Positions 14,826 through 59,537 of a stretch of 64,000 nt of DNA are shown here, one piece after another. Source of the DNA: a virus; IMG/VR virus record IMGVR_UViG_3300001533_000699. One strand, 5' to 3'. The notes under the pieces are model-generated. The model was not told where the DNA came from, did not search any database, and worked only from the letters and a program-made list of their open reading frames with translations. A program made the translations under genes and the position numbers. The stretch's first letter is position 1; the number at the start of each line of letters is the position of its first letter.

Positions 14826-15047
14826 TAGGCGTCTCACTTATTTTTGACTTCTCTATAGCTGCCGCGCCAGCCGAACTAGGCGGGTCGCCCCTCTCTAGTT
14901 CATCTTCGACTTCCTGGTTGACTTTTGTGTCACCAATCGCGTATAATAAAGAAGGAAGTAGTGGAATTTTCATATTACAGTCCTTTCTATGTGAATGCGT
15001 ATCTGATATAGTATAACCAAAACCACAGTAGTTTGTCAAGGTAAAAA

Positions 15048-15260
15048 ATGCATAATAAAAAACAATGGAATAAAATAGAGGAACAGTTTGTGAAAGATAA
15101 TGCTACGAAATTGACCGATGCGGAAGGAGCAATGCAGCTCAGCCGTATTATCGGTGAATACATAAGTACCCGTAGTTGGAGACGTAAAAGGAACGAGTTG
15201 GGCATCAAAAAACAGAGAGGTAAGGGCTTGTCAAAATTGGGAATGCCCGCTTCTGGTTAG
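15048..15260 (+). CDS. Small HTH/SANT-like protein
   Basis: W...EEQFVKDN...LTD...A..L...RKR..LGIKK pattern. Confidence 0.6.
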   Translation: MHNKKQWNKIEEQFVKDNATKLTDAEGAMQLSRIIGEYISTRSWRRKRNELGIKKQRGKGLSKLGMPASG

Positions 15261-15276
15261 AAAGGTTAGGTAAATA

Positions 15277-15525
15277 ATGAGACAACCACGCTTAATGAAA
15301 CACCCTAATGGTGGCATTTTGAATGTAGATGTTACAATGTTGCAGCTAGGTTTGAGTCAATGTAGGAGTGACGCCGAGAGGGCATTACAGCAGCTAGAAC
15401 ATGGGGTAGAGATAGATGTTGCGGCTGTTCTTACGTCTATCGTAGAGAGAGCGCGCAGCACTATGCATGAGATTCGTGAGTATGAGATGGATGATGAGGT
15501 GAACACTATGTTGGTTAGGGTGTAG
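15277..15525 (+). CDS. Hypothetical protein
   Basis: 82 aa with AGG SD. Confidence 0.5.
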   Translation: MRQPRLMKHPNGGILNVDVTMLQLGLSQCRSDAERALQQLEHGVEIDVAAVLTSIVERARSTMHEIREYEMDDEVNTMLVRV

Positions 15526-15657: not shown

Positions 15658-15797
15658 TGTTGCAATACGCTACAATTGTATCGTTTCGATGCATCGTTTC
15701 GATACACACGTGGAATACCATACTAATGGGGGGTTTGACGTAAGTGCTTGCGCTGCAAGGATTTACGATTTTAGGCCGGTTTGGCACACAACTTGCA
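15658..15797 (+). promoter_or_regulatory. Sigma54 promoter with upstream activator-like and IHF-like sites (copy 1)
   Basis: TGGCAC-ACAAC-TTGCA at 15782-15797; CGTAAGTGCTTG..CAAGGATTTACG at 15739-15767; three 17-bp TGY-N11-RCA boxes at 15658-15706. Confidence 0.8.
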
Positions 15798-15890
15798 TAT
15801 ACTCTTTTCTGGTTTGGCCGCGAACCGCCACCCCAGCGAGGGGTTCTCGTTTGTGGGTTCCGTTCCTATGCGGCATTGGAGCATGTTATC

Positions 15891-16235
15891 ATGGCTACAG
15901 AATCAGCGTTCGGGTTTGTGTACGAATATGGCGTAAACGGAGCATCTGTTGCGTTACGTCTGCTAGTCAAACATACCTCTGTATCAGAGGATACCGCTAG
16001 GGTGATGCGTAGCATTGCCGATGATTTAGGTGAGGTCAATGCTAACAAGGCGGCATGGGCAGATTTAGACTATGTTGGTCGTCTGTTATGCGACATACCG
16101 GGTTATTATCACTTCAGTGATGAGGTTTCCATGGCTTTACGCCAATTGGCGTGTGATATCGACTCGGTAGTGGCAAGCTATATCGGGAAGCGGCGACTGT
16201 CCATAATGGAATACCGTTTGTACGACAAGCGGTAA
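15891..16235 (+). CDS. Hypothetical protein under sigma54 promoter 1
   Basis: ATG 15891 with GGAG SD (MATESAFG). Confidence 0.65.
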   Translation: MATESAFGFVYEYGVNGASVALRLLVKHTSVSEDTARVMRSIADDLGEVNANKAAWADLDYVGRLLCDIPGYYHFSDEVSMALRQLACDIDSVVASYIGKRRLSIMEYRLYDKR

Positions 16236-16459
16236 ACCAGTGGGGAGCCCCCTCCTACGGGAGGGGGCGACCCGGCCCACCCCTTCGGTGAGGGGGTGAG
16301 CCGGGTGCCGACGCCCCACCCCACCCGCAAAGGGGTCCTGCGGATGGCGATAGTCGGAGTGGAGAGTAACTATGTTGAAAGTCGTGAAAGCTTCCCGATG
16401 ATGCAAATGTGTGTCGTGTGGTGAACAGATACGAACAGACGAAAATATCGTCATCGCCG

Positions 16460-17340
16460 GGGGGTTATTTTATACCTAATTGCTATATCAAATATAGTGA
16501 TTATCAGCATGACCCTATATCAATATACGTAGTCAGCGAATAGGGCTAGCGACCCCCAAAATAGTGGAAAAAGAGCCGACTTGTCGGCGCGTAACACCCC
16601 ACGCAGTGGGGTCAATATAGGTAGTCAGTAAAGACCCAAAAGGGTGGGTAAAAATGCGGCAATGCACGCCCCCAAAAGAAGGGCCACCGACGCGGTCACA
16701 ACCCCCTCAGAAGTAGTACCGCCTCCGGTGTAACACCCCACGTAGTGGGGTCAATATGGAGTAGCCAGCAACCCTCGTTAGTGGGGGCTCTAATAGGAAA
16801 AGGTAACACCCCAATCAGGGGGTCGGGCCAACAGCTACATTCTCTATGGCTTTTATGCACATTACCCCCTTACAGATATAGACGCGCCCCCCGTTCGTAG
16901 GGTAACAGCCGAGCCACTCGGCTCGGTCCAATGGGGGGTAGCCAGCACCACTCAGGGGGTACTCATTTTAGGTGGTAAGAAAAAATCAAATAAGGGGGCA
17001 CCGGCGCGGCAGTGCGTACCACCCAAAGGAGGGGCGTCGTGGCGAAATGCCATTGCTGATATGCATTATACCACTTGTGCACATTACCCCTCTACAGGCA
17101 TGGCCGGTACCACCACCCCCTCTATAGATATAGCTGCACCACCTTCTGATAGGGGTCCGACCGGGGGGTAACGCCCGACCCGGTCGGGTCGTCCTAATGG
17201 GGGGTAGCCAGCGGCTCTCTGGTAGGGTGTAAGGAAAAAGCAAAAGAGGGGGTTCTAATGGGGGGTATCACCCCATCCAATGTCGTCGAAATGCCATTGC
17301 TGATATGCATTATACGATTTATGGCTATTGCATACTTATG
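16460..17340. repeat. Non-coding mosaic of short hairpin modules (block 1)
   Basis: GTAACACCCCACGNAGTGGGGTCAATAT at 16591 and 16730; CGAAATGCCATTGCTGATATGCATTAT at 17043 and 17287; 16855-16995 resembles 17078-17247. Confidence 0.8.
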
Positions 17341-17383
17341 GGGGGTGGGGGGTTACCTAACTCAACCGAAGTGGTAGGAAAAG

Positions 17384-17521
17384 TGTTGCAAAATGCTACG
17401 ATTGTATCATTATGCTGCATCGAAACAATACACACCGATTCTCCCACCAATGGGGGGCTTGACGTAAGTGCTTACACTGTAAGGATTTACGATTTTAGGC
17501 CGGTTTGGCACAATAGTTGCA
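17384..17521 (+). promoter_or_regulatory. Sigma54 promoter with activator-like and IHF-like sites (copy 2)
   Basis: TGGCAC-AATAG-TTGCA at 17506-17521; diverged direct repeat of 15658-15797. Confidence 0.8.
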
Positions 17522-17602
17522 TTGTATTGTTGCGAAGCAACGACGCACCCCACCACGCGGGGGGGTCCCGTAATGGGGGGTGCGGAAAACCGGAGAAATG
17601 CT

Positions 17603-18049
17603 ATGACGTTTCAAGACATTGCGGCTGAACTATCCCGCACCTCAGAGCTGGCAATTGCCCTCCATCTGGGGGAAGTCCGCATGACCCTCGATGAGGGGGG
17701 GCAGCCAGTCAAGGTATTCCCCCAACTAGGGGGGGTTATCATGGCGTGTGACGGTACCCTACTAGAGGGGGGGAAGTGGGGTGCTAAGAAAGATGACCCT
17801 AATGAGGGGGTCGCACCCCCAGAAGAGACACCCCTCGACGAGAGGTTGGCATGGCATGCCGAGAGGGTAGCCCGCGAGGGGGAAGACACCCCCCCGTTCC
17901 ACAAGCCCCTCGTGCAGGGGTACGTCCCCCTAGAAAGTCGGTCATGCACGAAAACCTCCCCTTGCGAGGTATGCAAGGCTCACGGGGGCAAGAAGCCCCC
18001 CGTAATGAGTAAGAAACAATGGAACGACCATATGAAAACTATCCGATAG
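17603..18049 (+). CDS. Hypothetical protein with C-terminal Cys cluster, under sigma54 promoter 2
   Basis: ATG 17603 with GGAG SD; CTKTSPCEVC. Confidence 0.65.
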   Translation: MTFQDIAAELSRTSELAIALHLGEVRMTLDEGGQPVKVFPQLGGVIMACDGTLLEGGKWGAKKDDPNEGVAPPEETPLDERLAWHAERVAREGEDTPPFHKPLVQGYVPLESRSCTKTSPCEVCKAHGGKKPPVMSKKQWNDHMKTIR

Positions 18050-18154
18050 GGTAGTGGGGTGCCCCCCTCCTACGGGAGGGGGGTCGCCCGGCCCGCCCCC
18101 TCTTCGGAGGGGTCGAGTCGGACGATTCGGAACCCCCTGAATGGAGACAAAAGG

Positions 18155-18325
18155 ATGCCCGATGGAAGTAGACGCAAACGACGGCAAGGACACACCCCCC
18201 GAGCGAGGTACTACTCCCTCTATAGAAGCATACGGTTCGCCCGTAGGTTCGGGGGGGTAGAAGTTAACCTGTTGTACGTACTCAAAAGGAGGGGTGTAAA
18301 TACCCCCCAGAAGGAGGCCCACTGA
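18155..18325 (+). CDS. Small basic hypothetical protein
   Basis: GGAG SD before ATG 18155; stop overlaps the next start. Confidence 0.45.
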   Translation: MPDGSRRKRRQGHTPRARYYSLYRSIRFARRFGGVEVNLLYVLKRRGVNTPQKEAH

Positions 18326-18612
18326 TGAGTCACTATATCCCCCAAAAGCACCCCCTCCGTAATGCTGTTGCGTCTCTCTCCAGCGAGGGGGTCGGAACAT
18401 ACTACAGCCAACTCCACTATTGGTGGGGTAGGGTCCAGCACACCCTGAAAGAGGGGGGCTTCCCCCTAGAACGGAGGGAAGATGACCCCCCAATTGTGTA
18501 TGGGGTGGAAGGTAGATGGATACTACCGCTGGGGGGCACGAATACCCGTCTGTGTGTCTACGTATATCGAATGCCAAGCGGCAACTATGAAGTGGTAAAC
18601 TACCTAACATAG
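18325..18612 (+). CDS. Hypothetical protein
   Basis: GGAGG SD; ends YRMPSGNYEVVNYLT. Confidence 0.7.
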   Translation: MSHYIPQKHPLRNAVASLSSEGVGTYYSQLHYWWGRVQHTLKEGGFPLERREDDPPIVYGVEGRWILPLGGTNTRLCVYVYRMPSGNYEVVNYLT

Positions 18613-19117
18613 GGGGTAGCAACCAGCCACTAGAGGGGCTTCCTGTGGGGGTGGTAACACCCCACACAGCCCCCTCGACGGAGGGGTATGCTCTTAATGT
18701 GCACAATTCCTATAGGGATTATCACGCATAAAAACCATCGGAAATAAGCAGGGAAGCCTCCCCTGCTAATAGGGGGCCAAACACCACCCGAACACATACG
18801 TCAGGTGGTAACGCACCACCCAAAGGAGGGGGGTCGCGGCGAAACCCTATTGCTGATATGCACTATGCGGCATGTGGCTATTTGTCTTATTGCTATGATT
18901 TCTATGGGGGTTATGTTGTACCACCCAAAGGAGGGGTGTGAAAAAGATAGTAAATAGCTAGCAAATCTGGGAGTTAGAACGTACCACCCAAAGGAGGGGC
19001 GTTAATTCCTATTGCTGATATGCATTATGGCCGTTGTGCGCATTTCCCCCCTTTTGGTACTTTAGAAAAAATCTCTGGGGGGGTTGTAATCCGCAAAACT
19101 TATGGTATAATGTCGGT

Positions 19118-19211
19118 ATATGATACAGGCTATCTATACATTGAACGGTACCCTACCCCTGCGGGGGTGGCACATACCCCGTTGCTGGACCCCCCGGCAG
19201 CGGGGTTTTTT
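19118..19211 (+). ncRNA. Candidate ~95-nt sRNA
   Basis: Sigma70-type promoter near 19085-19111, three hairpins, ends in ACCCCGTTGCTGG/CCGGCAGCGGGGT plus T run; no ORF. Confidence 0.5.
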
Positions 19212-19585
19212 GGGAGGTAAACATGCATAAATAAAATAGGGATTATGACAATTTAAACCACACCGGGGAGGGGTACGACCCTCACCCTGGGGGATAGTCT
19301 GCACATACCGCGTACCATGTAAGCGTAGCGTAACACCCCACGTAGTGGGGTCAATATGGGGTAGCCAGTAACACCCAAAGGAGGGGTGTCGCCGCGAAAT
19401 GCCATAGGTGATATGCATTATATTCTTTGTGGCAATTACCATACTAATGGGGTGCAAGGAAAATCCATTTGGGGTACCACCAATGGTATGTAAGGAAAAA
19501 GCATCAGGACTACTTACAATGGGGGTGCGTACCACCCTAAGTAGTGGTGTCGCGAAATGCCAGTTTGTCTATGCGAATTAGACAC

Positions 19586-19601
19586 TGCAAATCTTGTGCC
19601 A
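19586..19601 (-). promoter_or_regulatory. Sigma54 -24/-12 site, leftward
   Basis: Reverse complement TGGCAC-AAGAT-TTGCA. Confidence 0.75.
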
Positions 19602-19649
19602 AAGCGTATCGAGACACCACACTAATGGGGGTTTGAAAAAAACATTAGG

Positions 19650-19796
19650 GGGGTTGTGGTTCTAAAATAGTGTGTTATACTATAGACAGTAAGGGGGGAA
19701 TAACAAACAACGAAAACGAAAGTGAGGAAAACCAAAAAGGGGGTTGCAAAACCAAAAACATGTGATAGAATAAGTTTAAGTGAGACACACACACCA
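19650..19796 (+). promoter_or_regulatory. Tandem sigma70-type promoter cassette (repeat of 20725-20878)
   Basis: TTGTGG-N16-TATACT then TTGCAA-N16-TAGAAT; ~115 bp nearly identical to 20751-20878. Confidence 0.8.
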
Positions 19797-19809
19797 CGAG
19801 GAATCAGAA

Positions 19810-20061
19810 ATGGTAACGTATCATTATGTACATCTACGTCAAGATGACGATTCAGAAACACGTTACATAGTCGAGGTCGAGCACACCCCCGCATTGGGTG
19901 GTATCGACCTGACAATTCAGGCATGTCAAGCCATAGCGTCTGTTAGGCTAGATGAAAACGGCGTAGAGGTATTCGACTACCTACACGAAGACATGCTTCT
20001 GGACACCCAACCGGGGGGTGAGGACGAAGAACGAATCCTGGTTGCGTGCGGATTGAGGTAG
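19810..20061 (+). CDS. Acidic hypothetical protein
   Basis: GAGGA SD, ATG 19810. Confidence 0.65.
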   Translation: MVTYHYVHLRQDDDSETRYIVEVEHTPALGGIDLTIQACQAIASVRLDENGVEVFDYLHEDMLLDTQPGGEDEERILVACGLR

Positions 20062-20153
20062 TAGTCACAGTGGGGGGAGGTATGCGACCCAAACACCGGG
20101 GGTGCTCCCCCCTATTTTGAGGAAAACTGAAACACACACTAAGGAGATGGATT

Positions 20154-20492
20154 ATGTCATGTTTGGCATGCGGCAGTAGACTGTTTGAACACAACGAAAA
20201 CATCGTGTGCGAGGGGTGTGGAGAATCCCTCGACAGGGGGGAGATGGAAAAGCCGATAGTGAACATGCCAATTCTGGCATATCATATACACGAACTAGCA
20301 ACAGCCAGGGGGGAATTCACCCTCCACCCCTGCGAGGGGGTATCGGTGGTGGTAAACGTAATTCCCTCCACCTGGGAGGGGGTCTGGGACACTATGTATC
20401 TAAACGGCAAAAATTGCGGAAATAGAGCGGGTGCCATCGGGGCATTCGTTAAAATGGTTGGCGAAGCCAACCCACAGGTATCATGGAAATAA
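20154..20492 (+). CDS. Zn-ribbon hypothetical protein
   Basis: AAGGAG SD; CxxC...CxxC. Confidence 0.7.
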   Translation: MSCLACGSRLFEHNENIVCEGCGESLDRGEMEKPIVNMPILAYHIHELATARGEFTLHPCEGVSVVVNVIPSTWEGVWDTMYLNGKNCGNRAGAIGAFVKMVGEANPQVSWK

Positions 20493-20691
20493 GTGGTGTG
20501 TGACACCCCCCGGTCAAGGTACGCTCTTGGCCGGGGGGTAACCCCCCATCCAGCCCCCTCTGGGGAGGGGTGGGGTATCGGCATAAAAGCCATAAAATCT
20601 ATAGGGTTTCATCTAAACCAACACCGTCAAAATCCATAGGTGATATGCACTATGGCAATTAAAAGCGTAGTAACTCTATCGGTGATAACAG

Positions 20692-20707
20692 AGCAAATAT
20701 CATGCCA
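20692..20707 (-). promoter_or_regulatory. Sigma54 -24/-12 site, leftward
   Basis: Reverse complement TGGCAT-GATAT-TTGCT. Confidence 0.7.
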
Positions 20708-20893
20708 AAATAAAATAAAATTAGGGGGTTGCAATTCTCAAAACCTATGCTATACTATAGACAGTGAGGGGGAAACAACAACAACAACAACAACGAAAAC
20801 GAAAGTGAGGAAAACCAAAAGGGGGGTTGCAAAACCAAAAACATGTGATAGAATAAGTTTAAGTGAGACACACACACCAACACGGAGTCAAAC

Positions 20894-21637
20894 ATGTTTT
20901 CGCCAAAAAATGCTAAAACAAAAGCGTTACGTCAAGTGTTCGGCAACAAAAGAGTCTACTCTTTGGACCTGCCTGCTGGACATACGTGCCCTGGGGCAAA
21001 AGACTGCAAGAGTCAGGCAGTTGTCAACGCCGATGGAAAATGCAAGATTGTCGATGGACCGGATTGCATCTTCAGATGCTTCGCAGCGTCTCAAGAGGCA
21101 CTATACCCCCAAACGTGGGCAAAGCGACAACGAAACCTAAAGCTGGTCAAGGGGTGCAGTACCCCCCAACAGGTGTGCGAATTGTTGTGTAACCACCTTC
21201 CAGACAATGCGGGAATAATCCGATTGCATGTATCCGGTGATTTCTACAGTAAAACCTACCTTCGGGGAGCCATGATGGCAGCACAACGTACCCCCAACAT
21301 CAGGTGGTACGCATACACGAAGAGTCTCCACCTGTTTAGTGGAGTGCCGATGCAAGACCCCCAAAACGGGGTGGTATTCAACAATTTCATTCTGACAGCC
21401 AGTGTGGGTGGTAAGCACGACCACCTGATTGAAAACCTCGGATTACGTACCGCTGAAGTGGTATTTAGCGAAGAAGAGGCAAAACAGAAGGGGTTGGAAA
21501 TAGACCATACGGACGAACACGCCGCACAACCAGGGGGGTCCTTCGCCCTGCTGATTCATGGTACCCAACCGGCGGGGTCCGAAGCTGGCAAGGCATGGTA
21601 TAAAATCCGCAAAGCCAAAGGGGGTTATAGTCGATAG
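20894..21637 (+). CDS. GP88-like Fe-S/radical-SAM-like protein
   Basis: LPAGHTCPGA..C, C.F.CFA, RLHVSGDFYS and YAYTK motifs. Confidence 0.7.
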   Translation: MFSPKNAKTKALRQVFGNKRVYSLDLPAGHTCPGAKDCKSQAVVNADGKCKIVDGPDCIFRCFAASQEALYPQTWAKRQRNLKLVKGCSTPQQVCELLCNHLPDNAGIIRLHVSGDFYSKTYLRGAMMAAQRTPNIRWYAYTKSLHLFSGVPMQDPQNGVVFNNFILTASVGGKHDHLIENLGLRTAEVVFSEEEAKQKGLEIDHTDEHAAQPGGSFALLIHGTQPAGSEAGKAWYKIRKAKGGYSR

Positions 21638-21775
21638 TGTGTGTGTCCCCCCCCACCAGGGTTCCCTCCCCTGGTGGGGGTTGGGGGAAAACCAAAAGAG
21701 GGGTTGTAAACAGAAAACATTGTGCTACAATACAAGAGTCAAGTATTCACCACCATCTTTCAGGGAGTTTGAACC

Positions 21776-22252
21776 ATGCGTGTTTTCACCCGTTCAGAGT
21801 TTGCCGAATTCGTTGCCAATATCAAGGGTTCGGTCATTATGTCGTTGACCATCAAGACCGATGCCCCTACGAAGAGGGGTGCCCCGGCCATCTTCAAAAT
21901 CAAGCATTGCCCTGCTGGGTTGGGTTGGAACTATGCCAAGCGGAAAGCCGCTGCTGAAGGGGTGCCAGTCGAACAGCTCGCCCCCTCCAATGGGTCATGG
22001 CACACCCTCGTGCAAGGGGCGCTGCGTCGGCATCGTGACGATGCGTCTCGACTGTATGTCGAATACTACCCCTCCGATAAGGGTGCGAAGACCCAGTACG
22101 AGATGGATGGTCGAACCTACTCGTATAATGAGGTTGCCGAGCACCTCAAAGCCCCCCGCAAGGGTGGTGACAACAACACGGGCTATCGTATGGCCAAGCT
22201 TGAAAACGTTGTTGGGGGTGTTCTGAACAAAGAGCCATTCGTGGTGGTATGA
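21776..22252 (+). CDS. Hypothetical protein
   Basis: GGAG SD; own promoter at 21704. Confidence 0.7.
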   Translation: MRVFTRSEFAEFVANIKGSVIMSLTIKTDAPTKRGAPAIFKIKHCPAGLGWNYAKRKAAAEGVPVEQLAPSNGSWHTLVQGALRRHRDDASRLYVEYYPSDKGAKTQYEMDGRTYSYNEVAEHLKAPRKGGDNNTGYRMAKLENVVGGVLNKEPFVVV

Positions 22253-22394
22253 TGGACCCTAGTAAGAGGGGTGTCCGGTAACAACGGGCACCCCTCTGAC
22301 GGGGATTTAACAAAAACCACAATAGGGGTTGCATTACACAAAAAACGTTGTACAATAAGAGTAGTTCATCACCACTTACTTAAGGAGTACAAGT

Positions 22395-22604
22395 ATGTAC
22401 GCAAGCATCAATTTCCGAACTAAGAAAGCTTTCCGTGAGGCTGTCAAGGCCGGTAAAGAAGTCTCCGTGTCGCAACCCGGCCCGTTTGGCGGCAACGAAC
22501 CGAGCAACGGAAGAGTGGCGGTTGAGGGGCCATGGTATCCCGAACCGCACAGGTGGTATGCCACTGCTACCCTCAAAGATGGGGTGGTGGTAAAGGTAGC
22601 ATGA
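22395..22604 (+). CDS. Hypothetical protein
   Basis: AAGGAG SD; own promoter at 22329. Confidence 0.75.
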   Translation: MYASINFRTKKAFREAVKAGKEVSVSQPGPFGGNEPSNGRVAVEGPWYPEPHRWYATATLKDGVVVKVA

Positions 22605-22881
22605 GGTGGTGACACACCCCCCGGCCAGAGTACCTCCCTGGCCGGGGGGTCACACCCCATCCGACCCCCTCGCGTGGGGGTATGCGCTGAACAGCCACAA
22701 AACCTATGGCAGATAAGCAGGGAAGCCTGTCCTGCTAATTTCTATAGGAATTCTAGCTTTTGAATAGCCACAACCCCCATGGTAATTCCAGCCCATCCTA
22801 CCATTTGACTCCCACATTTAGGGGTTAGTTAGTACTATGTTGGGGGGGGTAAAGATGTAGTAATTCTATTGGTTATTGTTG

Positions 22882-22897
22882 AGCAAATATTATGCCA
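22882..22897 (-). promoter_or_regulatory. Sigma54 -24/-12 site, leftward
   Basis: Reverse complement TGGCAT-AATAT-TTGCT. Confidence 0.7.
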
Positions 22898-23035
22898 AAG
22901 AATAATAAAATAAAGGGGTTGTAATTCTCAAAACTTGTGGTATGATATAGGTAGTGAAGGGGAAAGGGCAACAACGAAGAAAACCAAAAGAGGGGTTGTA
23001 ATTCTCAAGACTTGTGATAGAATACAGTTACCGAT

Positions 23036-23173
23036 GTGGGGGCCTTGGTGGGGCCAAGACGCCTAATGAAGAAGCGTCTTTGAGTACATAACAGAAACTG
23101 ACCGTGCTGTAATGTGCTGTGGTCATTGCTGGTCACAATGGCTTGCTAGGGGTTTGATTCCCCTCCCCCCTCC
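23036..23173 (+). ncRNA. tRNA-like structured RNA (T-arm and acceptor, enlarged interior)
   Basis: Starts just after the promoter at 22996-23023; 5' GGGGG pairs with 3' CCCCC; AGGGG-TTTGATT-CCCCT T-arm; internal hairpins. Confidence 0.45.
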
Positions 23174-23367
23174 TTTTACTGTACTGTGTTTATCAAAAGA
23201 GGGGTTGTAAAGTCAGAAAACCGTAGTACAATACAAGAGGGAGTAAGTTACAATGCAATGCCCGGTCTGCCAACACGAGATGAAATCCATCTGCAACCCC
23301 GTAACGGGAGTGTGGTATTGGGCTTGCGATGCGTGTCAAAGTTACATCAATAAAACGGAGAAATAAA

Positions 23368-23574
23368 ATGCGTAAGCGAGAAGTCACGTGCGTAGTGTGC
23401 AAGGAAACCGTCAGCCGACGTAAGTCGCTTGCTGTAGAGTTCGAACAGCGTGCGTGTCGAAAGCACCCAGGAACATCTGCTGCGTCAGCAGAGTTCGATA
23501 TTAAGCGGCGTGCCGCTCTCGATGCCGATAGAGACAGTAAGAAGCTGGAGTCTTCGACCCGCTCTCTTAAGTAA
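23368..23574 (+). CDS. Zn-finger hypothetical protein
   Basis: GGAG SD; CVVC...CRKH. Confidence 0.6.
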   Translation: MRKREVTCVVCKETVSRRKSLAVEFEQRACRKHPGTSAASAEFDIKRRAALDADRDSKKLESSTRSLK

Positions 23575-23939
23575 GGGGTTCGGCCCATATTTGGGGTTGC
23601 ATTACAACAAACATGTGATAAAATACAGTTAATGAAGCAAGAGATTTGGTTACAACAGCTAGTGTTCAAGTCAATATTACAGGGGGAAAGTGACAAACGC
23701 AAAACCTGTGGTATACTTAGGTTAGTCCAACATCACACACACAAGGGAGAAAAATGTTCAAGTACAATGCAAAACCCAACGGTTTGGAAGTGTCCATCCA
23801 TACACAAAGCATGGGCAAGCACTTTGAAATGAAGTCTGATGGGTCCATGAAAAAATAAAAATGAGGGGTTGCAAACGGCAAAAGTTATGATAGAATACTT
23901 GTAGTGAAGTGGATACGACACAACGCAAAGGAACACACA

Positions 23940-24182
23940 ATGTTACACATTCGACTGGTTGGTTTTTATGACGCCTCGGCCCTATTCGAGGGGTTCAGCG
24001 ACCTGTGGCAACAATTCATCGAAAGCGACCCCTCATTTTCGTGGGGGTCCAACAATCACTCACTTATAACAGTACGCGACGTTCTAAACCACATGGACAA
24101 TGTAGGAATTGAGTATGACAAAGCATTTGTAGACAAATGTGGTCTGATTGACGAACACTTCTACGTTGACCTAGAGAACTAA
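23940..24182 (+). CDS. Acidic hypothetical protein (paralog of 24687-24926)
   Basis: Shares F.WG.NNH.L and YVDLEN* with the paralog. Confidence 0.75.
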   Translation: MLHIRLVGFYDASALFEGFSDLWQQFIESDPSFSWGSNNHSLITVRDVLNHMDNVGIEYDKAFVDKCGLIDEHFYVDLEN

Positions 24183-32031: not shown

Positions 32032-33224
32032 ACGGATATCTTACCACAAAATTTTCAAAAGTCAAGTGCAAAAATTCCTCCTTATAGACTCTATTATGCT
32101 TCATATTGATACAAGTTGTGGCTACTATAGTGAGGACTTAACCTGTGTGAGTAATCTGGCGTAATGAAAGAGGGACTAACACGTGTGATTATGTTCTGTG
32201 TCGTTGATGTACGGTAGACCACGACAACCTTCCCTGCTTATACTTAACGTAAGGCGTAGCGTGTACGTAGACCTATATCTAACGGTATCATCGAGTGCAT
32301 TTGACTTGCCTATATCTATAAATAGGAATTTCATGTGTGTCTGCCCCACGCTTTTATGTTAAAAACAAAGGTAGCGCCGTCATCGCAGACCGACAACCAA
32401 AAAGATGGACTGTATTATGTTAAGCGAGCCCGACAGAGTAGAGACAGTGGTCTCTAACTGGCATCGCTACTCGGCTTCAGGGTATCGTCACGGTAACCCG
32501 CTACTCCCATCCATCGCCCCCAACGCAAACTCTTTACTCATATATTTTTTAGCCTGTTGAGGTAGGCTACTCTATTATACGCCTCACACCACCCGTTTGT
32601 CAACCACTAACCCAGATTTGTACCAAAGTGTAACACATCCGAACACAACGTACGGTTTCGAACACCGTTTTTAGGTAAACCCCCCCTCTCAGAGACACAA
32701 TGTTGCGTAATTGGTACAAAAAGTGGCTAATTTAATGCTATTTTGACACGTTAAGCGTTAAATTCGCCGCATCTCTTGACTTTTTCGAAATTTATGATAA
32801 AATACGGGTAAGAACTCGAAAAAACCTGTGATATTACGTAAGTCCTTACTGTGTAAGGGTTAAACGAGCCGTGATATATCATGGAGGGCAGTAGTCTTGC
32901 TATGCATGGGGCTCCTGCACCCAATTTCCTAGCGAAAAAATCCCCCCACCCCACCAACTCACCCCATAAGGGCTTACAACACTATTTGCTTGTTCTTCTT
33001 AGTGTTTTTGGTTGTTTTCTTATGGTGTTTTTGAGTACATATACCACAAATAACAAAAAAAATAGAATAATAACCACAATACAATTCACACTACGAACAC
33101 TCAATACAAACACCGCTTTCACAACGTTAAGCAGGGAATATCCCACTCACAACACATCATAACGCTTGTTATTCCTATGAAATAGGCAGAAATACAAAAC
33201 AGCGTATTTAAGAAATAGAAAACC

Positions 33225-59461: not shown

Positions 59462-59537
59462 GGGGCGTAAGGTAAGCCGGTAGCATCCGCGAATCTTATA
59501 AATTCGTCATAGGCAGGTTCAACTCCTGCACGCCCTA
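59462..59537 (+). tRNA. tRNA-Ile(TAT)
   Basis: CGAAT-CTTATAA-ATTCG. Confidence 0.8.

Follow-up and report, generated by a model that had tools for sequence, protein, structure and literature searches.

Two diverged copies of a cassette, located upstream of two ORFan genes of an uncultured giant phage, appear to represent a host-activated sigma-54 promoter in two copies, a reading to which a probability of roughly 60% is given. Since the boxes upstream of the promoter match a site type found near bacterial sigma-54 promoters, the phage probably lets a host activator time the two genes, here called A and B. In bacteria, sigma-54 enhancer promoters are well established, and they stay silent until a specific activator driven by ATP has been switched on. 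For the early genes of phages, the host housekeeping sigma factor is normally responsible. Dependence on such an activator would make phage gene expression conditional on the state of the host.

An initial annotation had proposed activator-dependent sigma-54 promoters served by a host enhancer-binding protein. This proposal has gained support from the sequence, with the exception of its IHF sites, its third copy and the equivalence of its three upstream boxes. The support comes from the quality and statistics of the core motif, its placement, the GG-N10-GC spacing conserved in a relative, the association of the box type with bacterial sigma-54 promoters and the lack of an activator or rpoN gene in the window, as the whole 64-kb stretch of DNA analyzed is called here. 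The features are listed in Table 1.

Table 1. Features of the two cassettes and related elements in the window.
Feature	Position	Strand	Remarks
Phage sigma-70-family factor, 215 aa	14190-14837	-	PF04542 (sigma-70 region 2), E 1e-6
Box 1, cassette A, TGT-N11-ACA	15658-15674	+	Conserved with copy B; more than 3 mismatches to TGYATCG-N3-CGATRCA
Boxes 2 and 3, cassette A, putative enhancer (UAS)	15677-15706	+	Box 2 15677-15693, box 3 15690-15706; two perfect palindromes TGYATCG-TTT-CGATRCA, 0 mismatches each
AATGGGGGG run between enhancer and palindrome	15725-15733	+	G6 run kept in copy B and L003
Imperfect palindrome/hairpin, cassette A	15738-15767	+	Centred at about -55; separate module
Sigma-54 core promoter A, TGGCAC-ACAAC-TTGCA	15782-15797	+	Predicted start near 15808
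Gene A, 114-aa ORFan	15891-16235	+	GGAG 9 nt 5' of ATG
Box 1, cassette B	17384-17400	+	Ends in ACG, not RCA
Boxes 2 and 3, cassette B, putative decayed enhancer	17403-17432	+	Box 2 17403-17419, box 3 17416-17432; 3 and 1 mismatches; centre of box 3 flipped to AAA
Palindrome, cassette B	17462-17491	+	Paired G>A / C>T change relative to A
Sigma-54 core promoter B, TGGCAC-AATAG-TTGCA	17506-17521	+	Predicted start near 17532
Gene B, 148-aa ORFan	17603-18049	+	GGAG 8 nt 5' of ATG
Third perfect sigma-54 core, leftward	19586-19601	-	Flanks like core B (21/25); no enhancer of the box 2/3 type
Palindrome only, third copy	32836-32862	+	About 30 nt downstream of sigma-70 promoter TTGACT-N17-TGATAAAAT

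Genomic setting

The window belongs to the genome of an uncultured giant phage. This genome measures at least 158 kb (158,199 bp in the longest contig with genes A and B), and the stretch is present in two DNA metagenome runs labeled aquatic and freshwater sediment. ARAGORN and Rfam agree on 15 tRNA genes and a tmRNA gene (one extra tRNA, Ile at 59462, is called by ARAGORN only), and rIIA, an RNA ligase and a portal-like protein are encoded as well. Leftward genes extend to 14837, the last of them being the gene of the sigma-70-family factor. This protein is 54-68% identical in the related phage contigs L001, L002 and L003, and its gene stands back to back with the early region. Divergent sigma-70 promoters at 14918 and 15039 are followed by small rightward genes (15048-15525) and then by cassettes A and B.

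The cassettes open an island from 16 to 24 kb which is marked by G and C runs and by a GC content of 48-54% vs. 40% in the phage body. Runs of at least five G or C are nearly limited to 16000-24000, with 24 G-runs in 16-18 kb vs. 0 in most other 2-kb bins, and AATGGGGG occurs eight times from 15725 to 19624, every time on the plus strand. From 19080 on, some 18 sigma-70 promoters are present in the island, their -10 boxes being TG-extended. The same G/C-run hairpins are present in L001 and L003, even within coding sequence. Furthermore, a 49-nt repeat (family D6) occupies 16960-17093 and has further copies at 17289, 18842, 19004, 19397 and 20629. On the minus strand it displays a TG-extended TATAAT, about 75 nt with a CCCCTCC/GGGTGG hairpin and finally a hairpin with a T-rich tail. 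Possibly, the repeats encode related small RNAs that are transcribed leftward where ORFs are scarce between the cassettes.

That each copy precedes an orphan gene was borne out. Genes A and B have no relatives in Pfam, PHROGs and 5.8 billion proteins, the latter search being bounded by length and word limits, and neither has a paralogue or a homologue in the phage relatives compared. The same pair of G/C hairpins is located 3' of both genes. Transcription from the sigma-70 promoter at 14918-14947 could extend into gene A.

The sigma-54 cores

The two copies, described beforehand as diverged and about 140 bp long, are identical at 113 of 140 positions (81%) between 15658-15797 and 17384-17521, and the identity reaches 90% over their last 77 nt (family D20). 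As duplicates of one element, cassettes A and B are not independent. Each ends with the perfect TGGCAC-N5-TTGCA that had been noticed before. Held against the sigma-54 consensus YTGGCACG-N4-TTGCW, both cores conform, with GG and GC exactly 10 bp apart. A comparison with shuffled sequence, suggested in the initial annotation, gave a clear result: the exact pattern TGGCAC-N5-TTGCW is found three times in the window vs. 0.01 expected, and allowing TGGCAY adds two more leftward sites, resulting in five vs. 0.16 expected. Cores A and B are co-oriented with their genes, the distance from the -12 GC to the ATG being 95 nt for A and 83 nt for B.

The sigma-54 cores at 19586, 20692 and 22882 have no enhancer and abut sigma-70 promoters, which suggests that sigma-54 sites are used in this phage also without activation. 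This leads to the main rival of the proposed promoter function, namely that sigma-54 holoenzyme binds the cores and is rarely or never activated. Closed complexes parked at the border of the early region would then serve as roadblocks, insulators or polymerase sinks, and the boxes would be vestigial. Apart from the three enhancer-less cores, such a role is in line with E. coli, where sigma-54 is inactive at many of the sites it binds (PMC4591121). It is at odds with the arrangement of cores A and B, since both face genes that have ribosome-binding sites and stand at the right distance from them. All in all, including the evidence on boxes and relatives given below, binding without activation is considered unlikely.

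The upstream boxes

All of the three 17-bp boxes reported for each copy exist; their equivalence does not hold, as only boxes 2 and 3 share the motif TGYATCG-N3-CGATRCA. In copy A, boxes 2 and 3 overlap by 4 nt, are 13 bp apart from centre to centre and are centred near positions -123 and -110 relative to the predicted start. By our own calculation, about 0.001 perfect 17-bp boxes would be expected in 64 kb, compared with the two in copy A. Dyad-symmetric sites in the range of an activator, about 80-200 bp upstream, are thus found in both copies, perfect in A and degenerate in B. It is plausible from the bacterial associations described below that the box TGYATCG-N3-CGATRCA is an activator site.

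The decay of the boxes in copy B would fit to vestigial sites next to a core that is merely occupied. Copy A, however, retains two perfect sites of the type that is tied to active-looking bacterial sigma-54 promoters, which speaks for the host-activated promoter. A box-like TGTATTGTTGCGAAGCA with two mismatches is additionally present at 17523-17539, right after core B and over its predicted start; it has no counterpart in A. Exact-pattern scans of IMG/VR revealed no match for the cassette and none for the combination of box and sigma-54 core.

The box type in bacterial genomes

One genome per species was scanned for 185,579 bacterial and archaeal species (596 Gb) with the pattern TGYATCG-N3-CGATRCA followed 60-90 nt later by TGGCAY-N5-TTGC. 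Here, 12 matches were obtained vs. about one expected by our own calculation. Three of the 12 are orthologous matches in Gemmatimonadales, two are found in one MAG (G001) and the others are single matches across other phyla, among which the one in Streptomyces is probably due to chance. Most matches have a start codon shortly downstream, the TTT/AAA centre of the phage box is present in five of the 12, and in five of the matching genomes the box is found nowhere else. The reversed control pattern gave zero in this closer examination.

In G001, all three boxes precede sigma-54 cores, the third of which had not been selected by the scan and lies 93 nt after its box. An unbiased sample of 92 other genomes of this phylum contains six boxes in all, and four of these have a GG-N10-GC core (at most two mismatches) 48-87 nt away, vs. 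about 5% expected for each. In a Comamonadaceae MAG (locus L007), the box even lies between two divergent sigma-54 cores. On the contrary, in 400 genomes from the phylum of the Bacillota MAG G098 the boxes occur at chance frequency and none of six is linked to sigma-54. The association of box and sigma-54 is therefore clade-specific.

Matching of the boxes to bacterial regulons, as suggested beforehand, was successful in part. The site type recurs near sigma-54 cores; the genes behind the bacterial boxes have no common function and, due to this, the activator could not be named. Only a single bacterial box adjoins an activator gene, which encodes a 1292-aa protein of G001 with kinase, TPR, GAF, sigma54-activator (AAA+) and HTH_8 domains. 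Downstream of a kinase-TPR-GAF-sigma54-activator gene in this MAG (L018:4900-5330), two tandem sigma-54 cores are present, each followed by a similar GGCTGG...CCAGCC hairpin. Possibly, small RNAs driven by sigma-54 are encoded here. An overlapping pair of boxes as in cassette A does not occur among the bacterial examples.

A literature search with the box sequence returned primers only. In a comparative study of Clostridiales, TGT-N10-12-ACA sites were described for 15 activator groups, and predicted sites of the Clostridium regulator BldR, for example TGTATCGTTTTGATACA, are two bases off the phage boxes (PMC6615313, Table S3).

The palindrome near -55

The palindrome noticed just upstream of the core is real in both cassettes. 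The IHF-like half sites ascribed to it, however, did not withstand a comparison with the consensus WATCAANNNNTTR, for which the best candidate is CAA-N4-TTA with three of nine specified positions (WAT) wrong. This failure, together with the recurrence of the palindrome away from sigma-54 cores, led to the rejection of an IHF site at this place. The window contains three occurrences of the palindrome. The supposed degenerate third copy of the cassette at 32700-32901 is reduced to it: the palindrome alone can be aligned, the position homologous to the cores of A and B reads GTGATATATCA and has no sigma-54 core, while further upstream a sigma-70 promoter is present. In IMG/VR contigs L067 and L068 the palindrome is likewise found near sigma-70 promoters or gene ends without sigma-54 cores. 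These two contigs, which belong to other uncultured phages, harbor non-coding clusters of CGTAAGT...ACTTACG-type hairpins beside sigma-70 promoters (L067:100-240; L068:2240-2340, minus strand), and the clusters are related to the palindrome of the cassettes.

The palindrome folds as a hairpin (z about -4.3) with paired changes between the copies. As a reading, an RNA hairpin has the drawback that in A and B the palindrome lies 5' of the predicted start, and three copies are no proof. The palindrome is probably a control element in its own right, an operator for some protein or a hairpin, and not an IHF site; as such a module, it would have been combined with the sigma-54 core in the two cassettes.

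In both A and B, a weak sigma-70-like promoter (TTGACG, 16 nt, TGn-AAGGAT) shares sequence with the palindrome. Transcription from this promoter would proceed into the sigma-54 site, which is a further point for a core that is bound without being activated.

The recurrence of the palindrome with sigma-70 promoters also bears on a different explanation, in which the cassette is read by a phage regulator or by the phage sigma-70-family factor and its sigma-54 likeness is coincidental. The gene of this factor (PF04542) is only 800 nt away, and the conserved genes at 15048-15525 look DNA-binding-like by eye, with no Pfam or PHROG match. Sigma-70-family factors, however, read -35/-10 elements. The sites in question match the sigma-54 consensus at each of its 11 fixed bases and at the final A/T, with exact spacing at three places, and the kept flanks around a free spacer are the pattern of a -24/-12 promoter. 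Furthermore, the box type is independently linked to sigma-54 in bacteria without this phage. The exact consensus and the bacterial associations make a phage-specific factor less likely than binding without activation, and very improbable overall.

Conservation in related phages

Among the relatives found by protein-guided searches, only L001 and L003 cover the junction region. In the metagenome contig L003, which stems from a related phage with neighboring proteins 68% and 84% identical, about 250 nt of the cassette can be aligned at the syntenic place, reading TTGGCACACTATATGCA. Its core is TGGCACACTATATGCA, with two changes in the spacer and one more at the first T of TTGC. Loss of the GG-N10-GC spacing in related phages had been named as a sign against the promoter; in L003, the single informative relative, the spacing is intact and the core is kept while the spacer drifts. 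At the syntenic place of the more distant L001 (54% identity), a sigma-54 core is missing.

L003 has retained neither the boxes nor the palindrome, nor the overlapping sigma-70-like promoter. As the boxes have decayed in B and are absent from L003, the enhancer is less conserved than the core. Loss of the boxes next to a kept core is again a point for sites that are occupied and not activated, while the lack of the sigma-70-like promoter in L003 speaks against them.

On the minus strand of L003 (1610-1700), three tandem 29-nt direct repeats are found, each with GACG-N11-CGTC. They are located 120-200 nt upstream of the sigma-54 core, where the window has its boxes, and by this position they may be a swapped enhancer.

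The same core bears on another alternative, that the cassette is duplicated, mobile or recombinogenic DNA without a promoter role, for example a captured fragment of a host promoter that travelled with the G-run island. The region is indeed assembled from shuffled repeat modules and differs from the phage body in base composition. Yet the core of L003 is conserved amid diverged flanks, each copy lies precisely before a gene, and one cassette in front of two different ORFs looks like selected promoter reuse. Non-functional DNA, which the exact consensus and the bacterial associations also render less likely, is the least credible of these explanations.

Activator, RpoN and host

The statement that neither an activator nor rpoN is present in the window was confirmed by profile searches against its six-frame translation, where the best E values were 1.8 for the activator AAA+ domain and 1.1 for RpoN. 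A HU/IHF profile found nothing in the same translation (best E 1.5). The profiles were built from 20 activator AAA+ domains, from three RpoN proteins plus one activator protein included by mistake, and from 14 HU/IHF proteins, all of them from box-bearing genomes.

The host is assumed to possess sigma-54 and a matching activator. A Bacillota host had been considered due to TRTG-type -16 elements, the leftward TGGCAT-N5-TTGCT sites, the BldR-like boxes and weak helicase matches to Herelleviridae. Since the strict boxes are at chance frequency and unlinked to sigma-54 in the 400 genomes of the phylum of G098, this idea was dropped. A BLAST search with the phage tmRNA against 93 genomes of the phylum of G001 revealed no match.

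Proposed mechanism

For the host-activated promoter, the following sequence of events can be proposed, in which binding of sigma-54, binding of an activator, transcription and any physiological gating are all predictions. Host RNA polymerase with sigma-54 would bind TGGCAC-N5-TTGCA as a closed complex. A host enhancer-binding ATPase would occupy the TGYATCG-N3-CGATRCA palindromes, 110-123 bp or so upstream, and reach the polymerase by looping, and only while this ATPase is active would transcription start about 12 nt downstream of the core. Each promoter would drive one short unit consisting of a structured 5' leader, an ORFan gene and a double hairpin. In this way, a signal of the host, not encoded by the phage itself, would control two genes located at the left edge of the early region.

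An extension of this mechanism is a portable two-input switch, in which the host enhancer is one input and the -55 palindrome is the operator of a phage regulator that overrides it, with relatives keeping the sigma-54 core and swapping enhancers, as L003 appears to have done, according to the activators of their hosts. The palindrome is common to the cassettes, to a sigma-70 promoter 17 kb away and to other uncultured phages, which would fit such a module; still, we regard the complete switch as quite doubtful. If it were true, ORFan early genes would depend on one host activator and thereby on a physiological or stress signal of the host.

Comparison with known systems

Well-known bacterial enhancer-dependent sigma-54 promoters are glnAp2 with its NtrC sites and nifH with its NifA sites (TGT-N10-ACA) and an IHF bend. 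Like these, the phage cassettes have a -24 GG / -12 GC core with exact spacing and no -35/-10 promoter, dyad-symmetric TGY...RCA sites about 110-125 bp upstream and an intervening element near -55. In contrast to both, they are located on a virus with no cognate activator in the 64 kb examined, and their two best sites share 4 nt. A further difference concerns the -55 element, which is a palindrome that fails the IHF consensus and is found away from sigma-54 promoters as well.

The butA promoter with its BldR sites is similar in having multiple 17-bp TGTATC-N5-GATACA/GATGCA palindromes upstream of TTGGCA(C/T)-N5-TTGC (PMC6615313, Table S3). However, at positions 7 and 11 the CG of the phage boxes is replaced by A/T in the clostridial sites, which are spaced by 23-28 bp and do not overlap (PMC6615313). 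The BldR sites are predictions, and the experiment of that study was the binding of sigma-54 to butA DNA (PMC6615313).

The promoters of G001, G025, Gemmatimonadales and the Comamonadaceae MAG share the identical 17-bp box including the TTT/AAA centre. Here, the boxes lie 48-93 nt upstream of the core, which is followed by small, mostly unannotated genes. These promoters differ from the phage cassettes by single boxes and A/T-rich linkers, and the linker of L018 contains a perfect IHF consensus ATCAATAAGTTA.

For the Pseudomonas aeruginosa phage YuA, Ceyssens et al. reportedly confirmed in 2008 one sigma-54-like promoter by mapping of the transcription start site and a promoter trap. The development of YuA depends on host sigma-54, and such dependence is called rare, not unprecedented, with YuA as the example (PMC5053324, PMC10914365). 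Published precedent for the use of host sigma-54 was found for this one phage, and a host-gated sigma-54 strategy is documented for very few phages. Both YuA and the phage described here would use host sigma-54, the latter case resting on sequence. YuA differs as an unrelated siphovirus of 58.7 kb, and here the enhancer is of a type that can be matched to bacterial promoters.

The added value of the present case would lie in this cross-match of a putative phage enhancer to bacterial promoters. As the enhancer matches a defined bacterial site type, it offers a concrete handle on the activator, its signal and possibly the host, and genes A and B are two ORFans whose function could be examined against that host signal.
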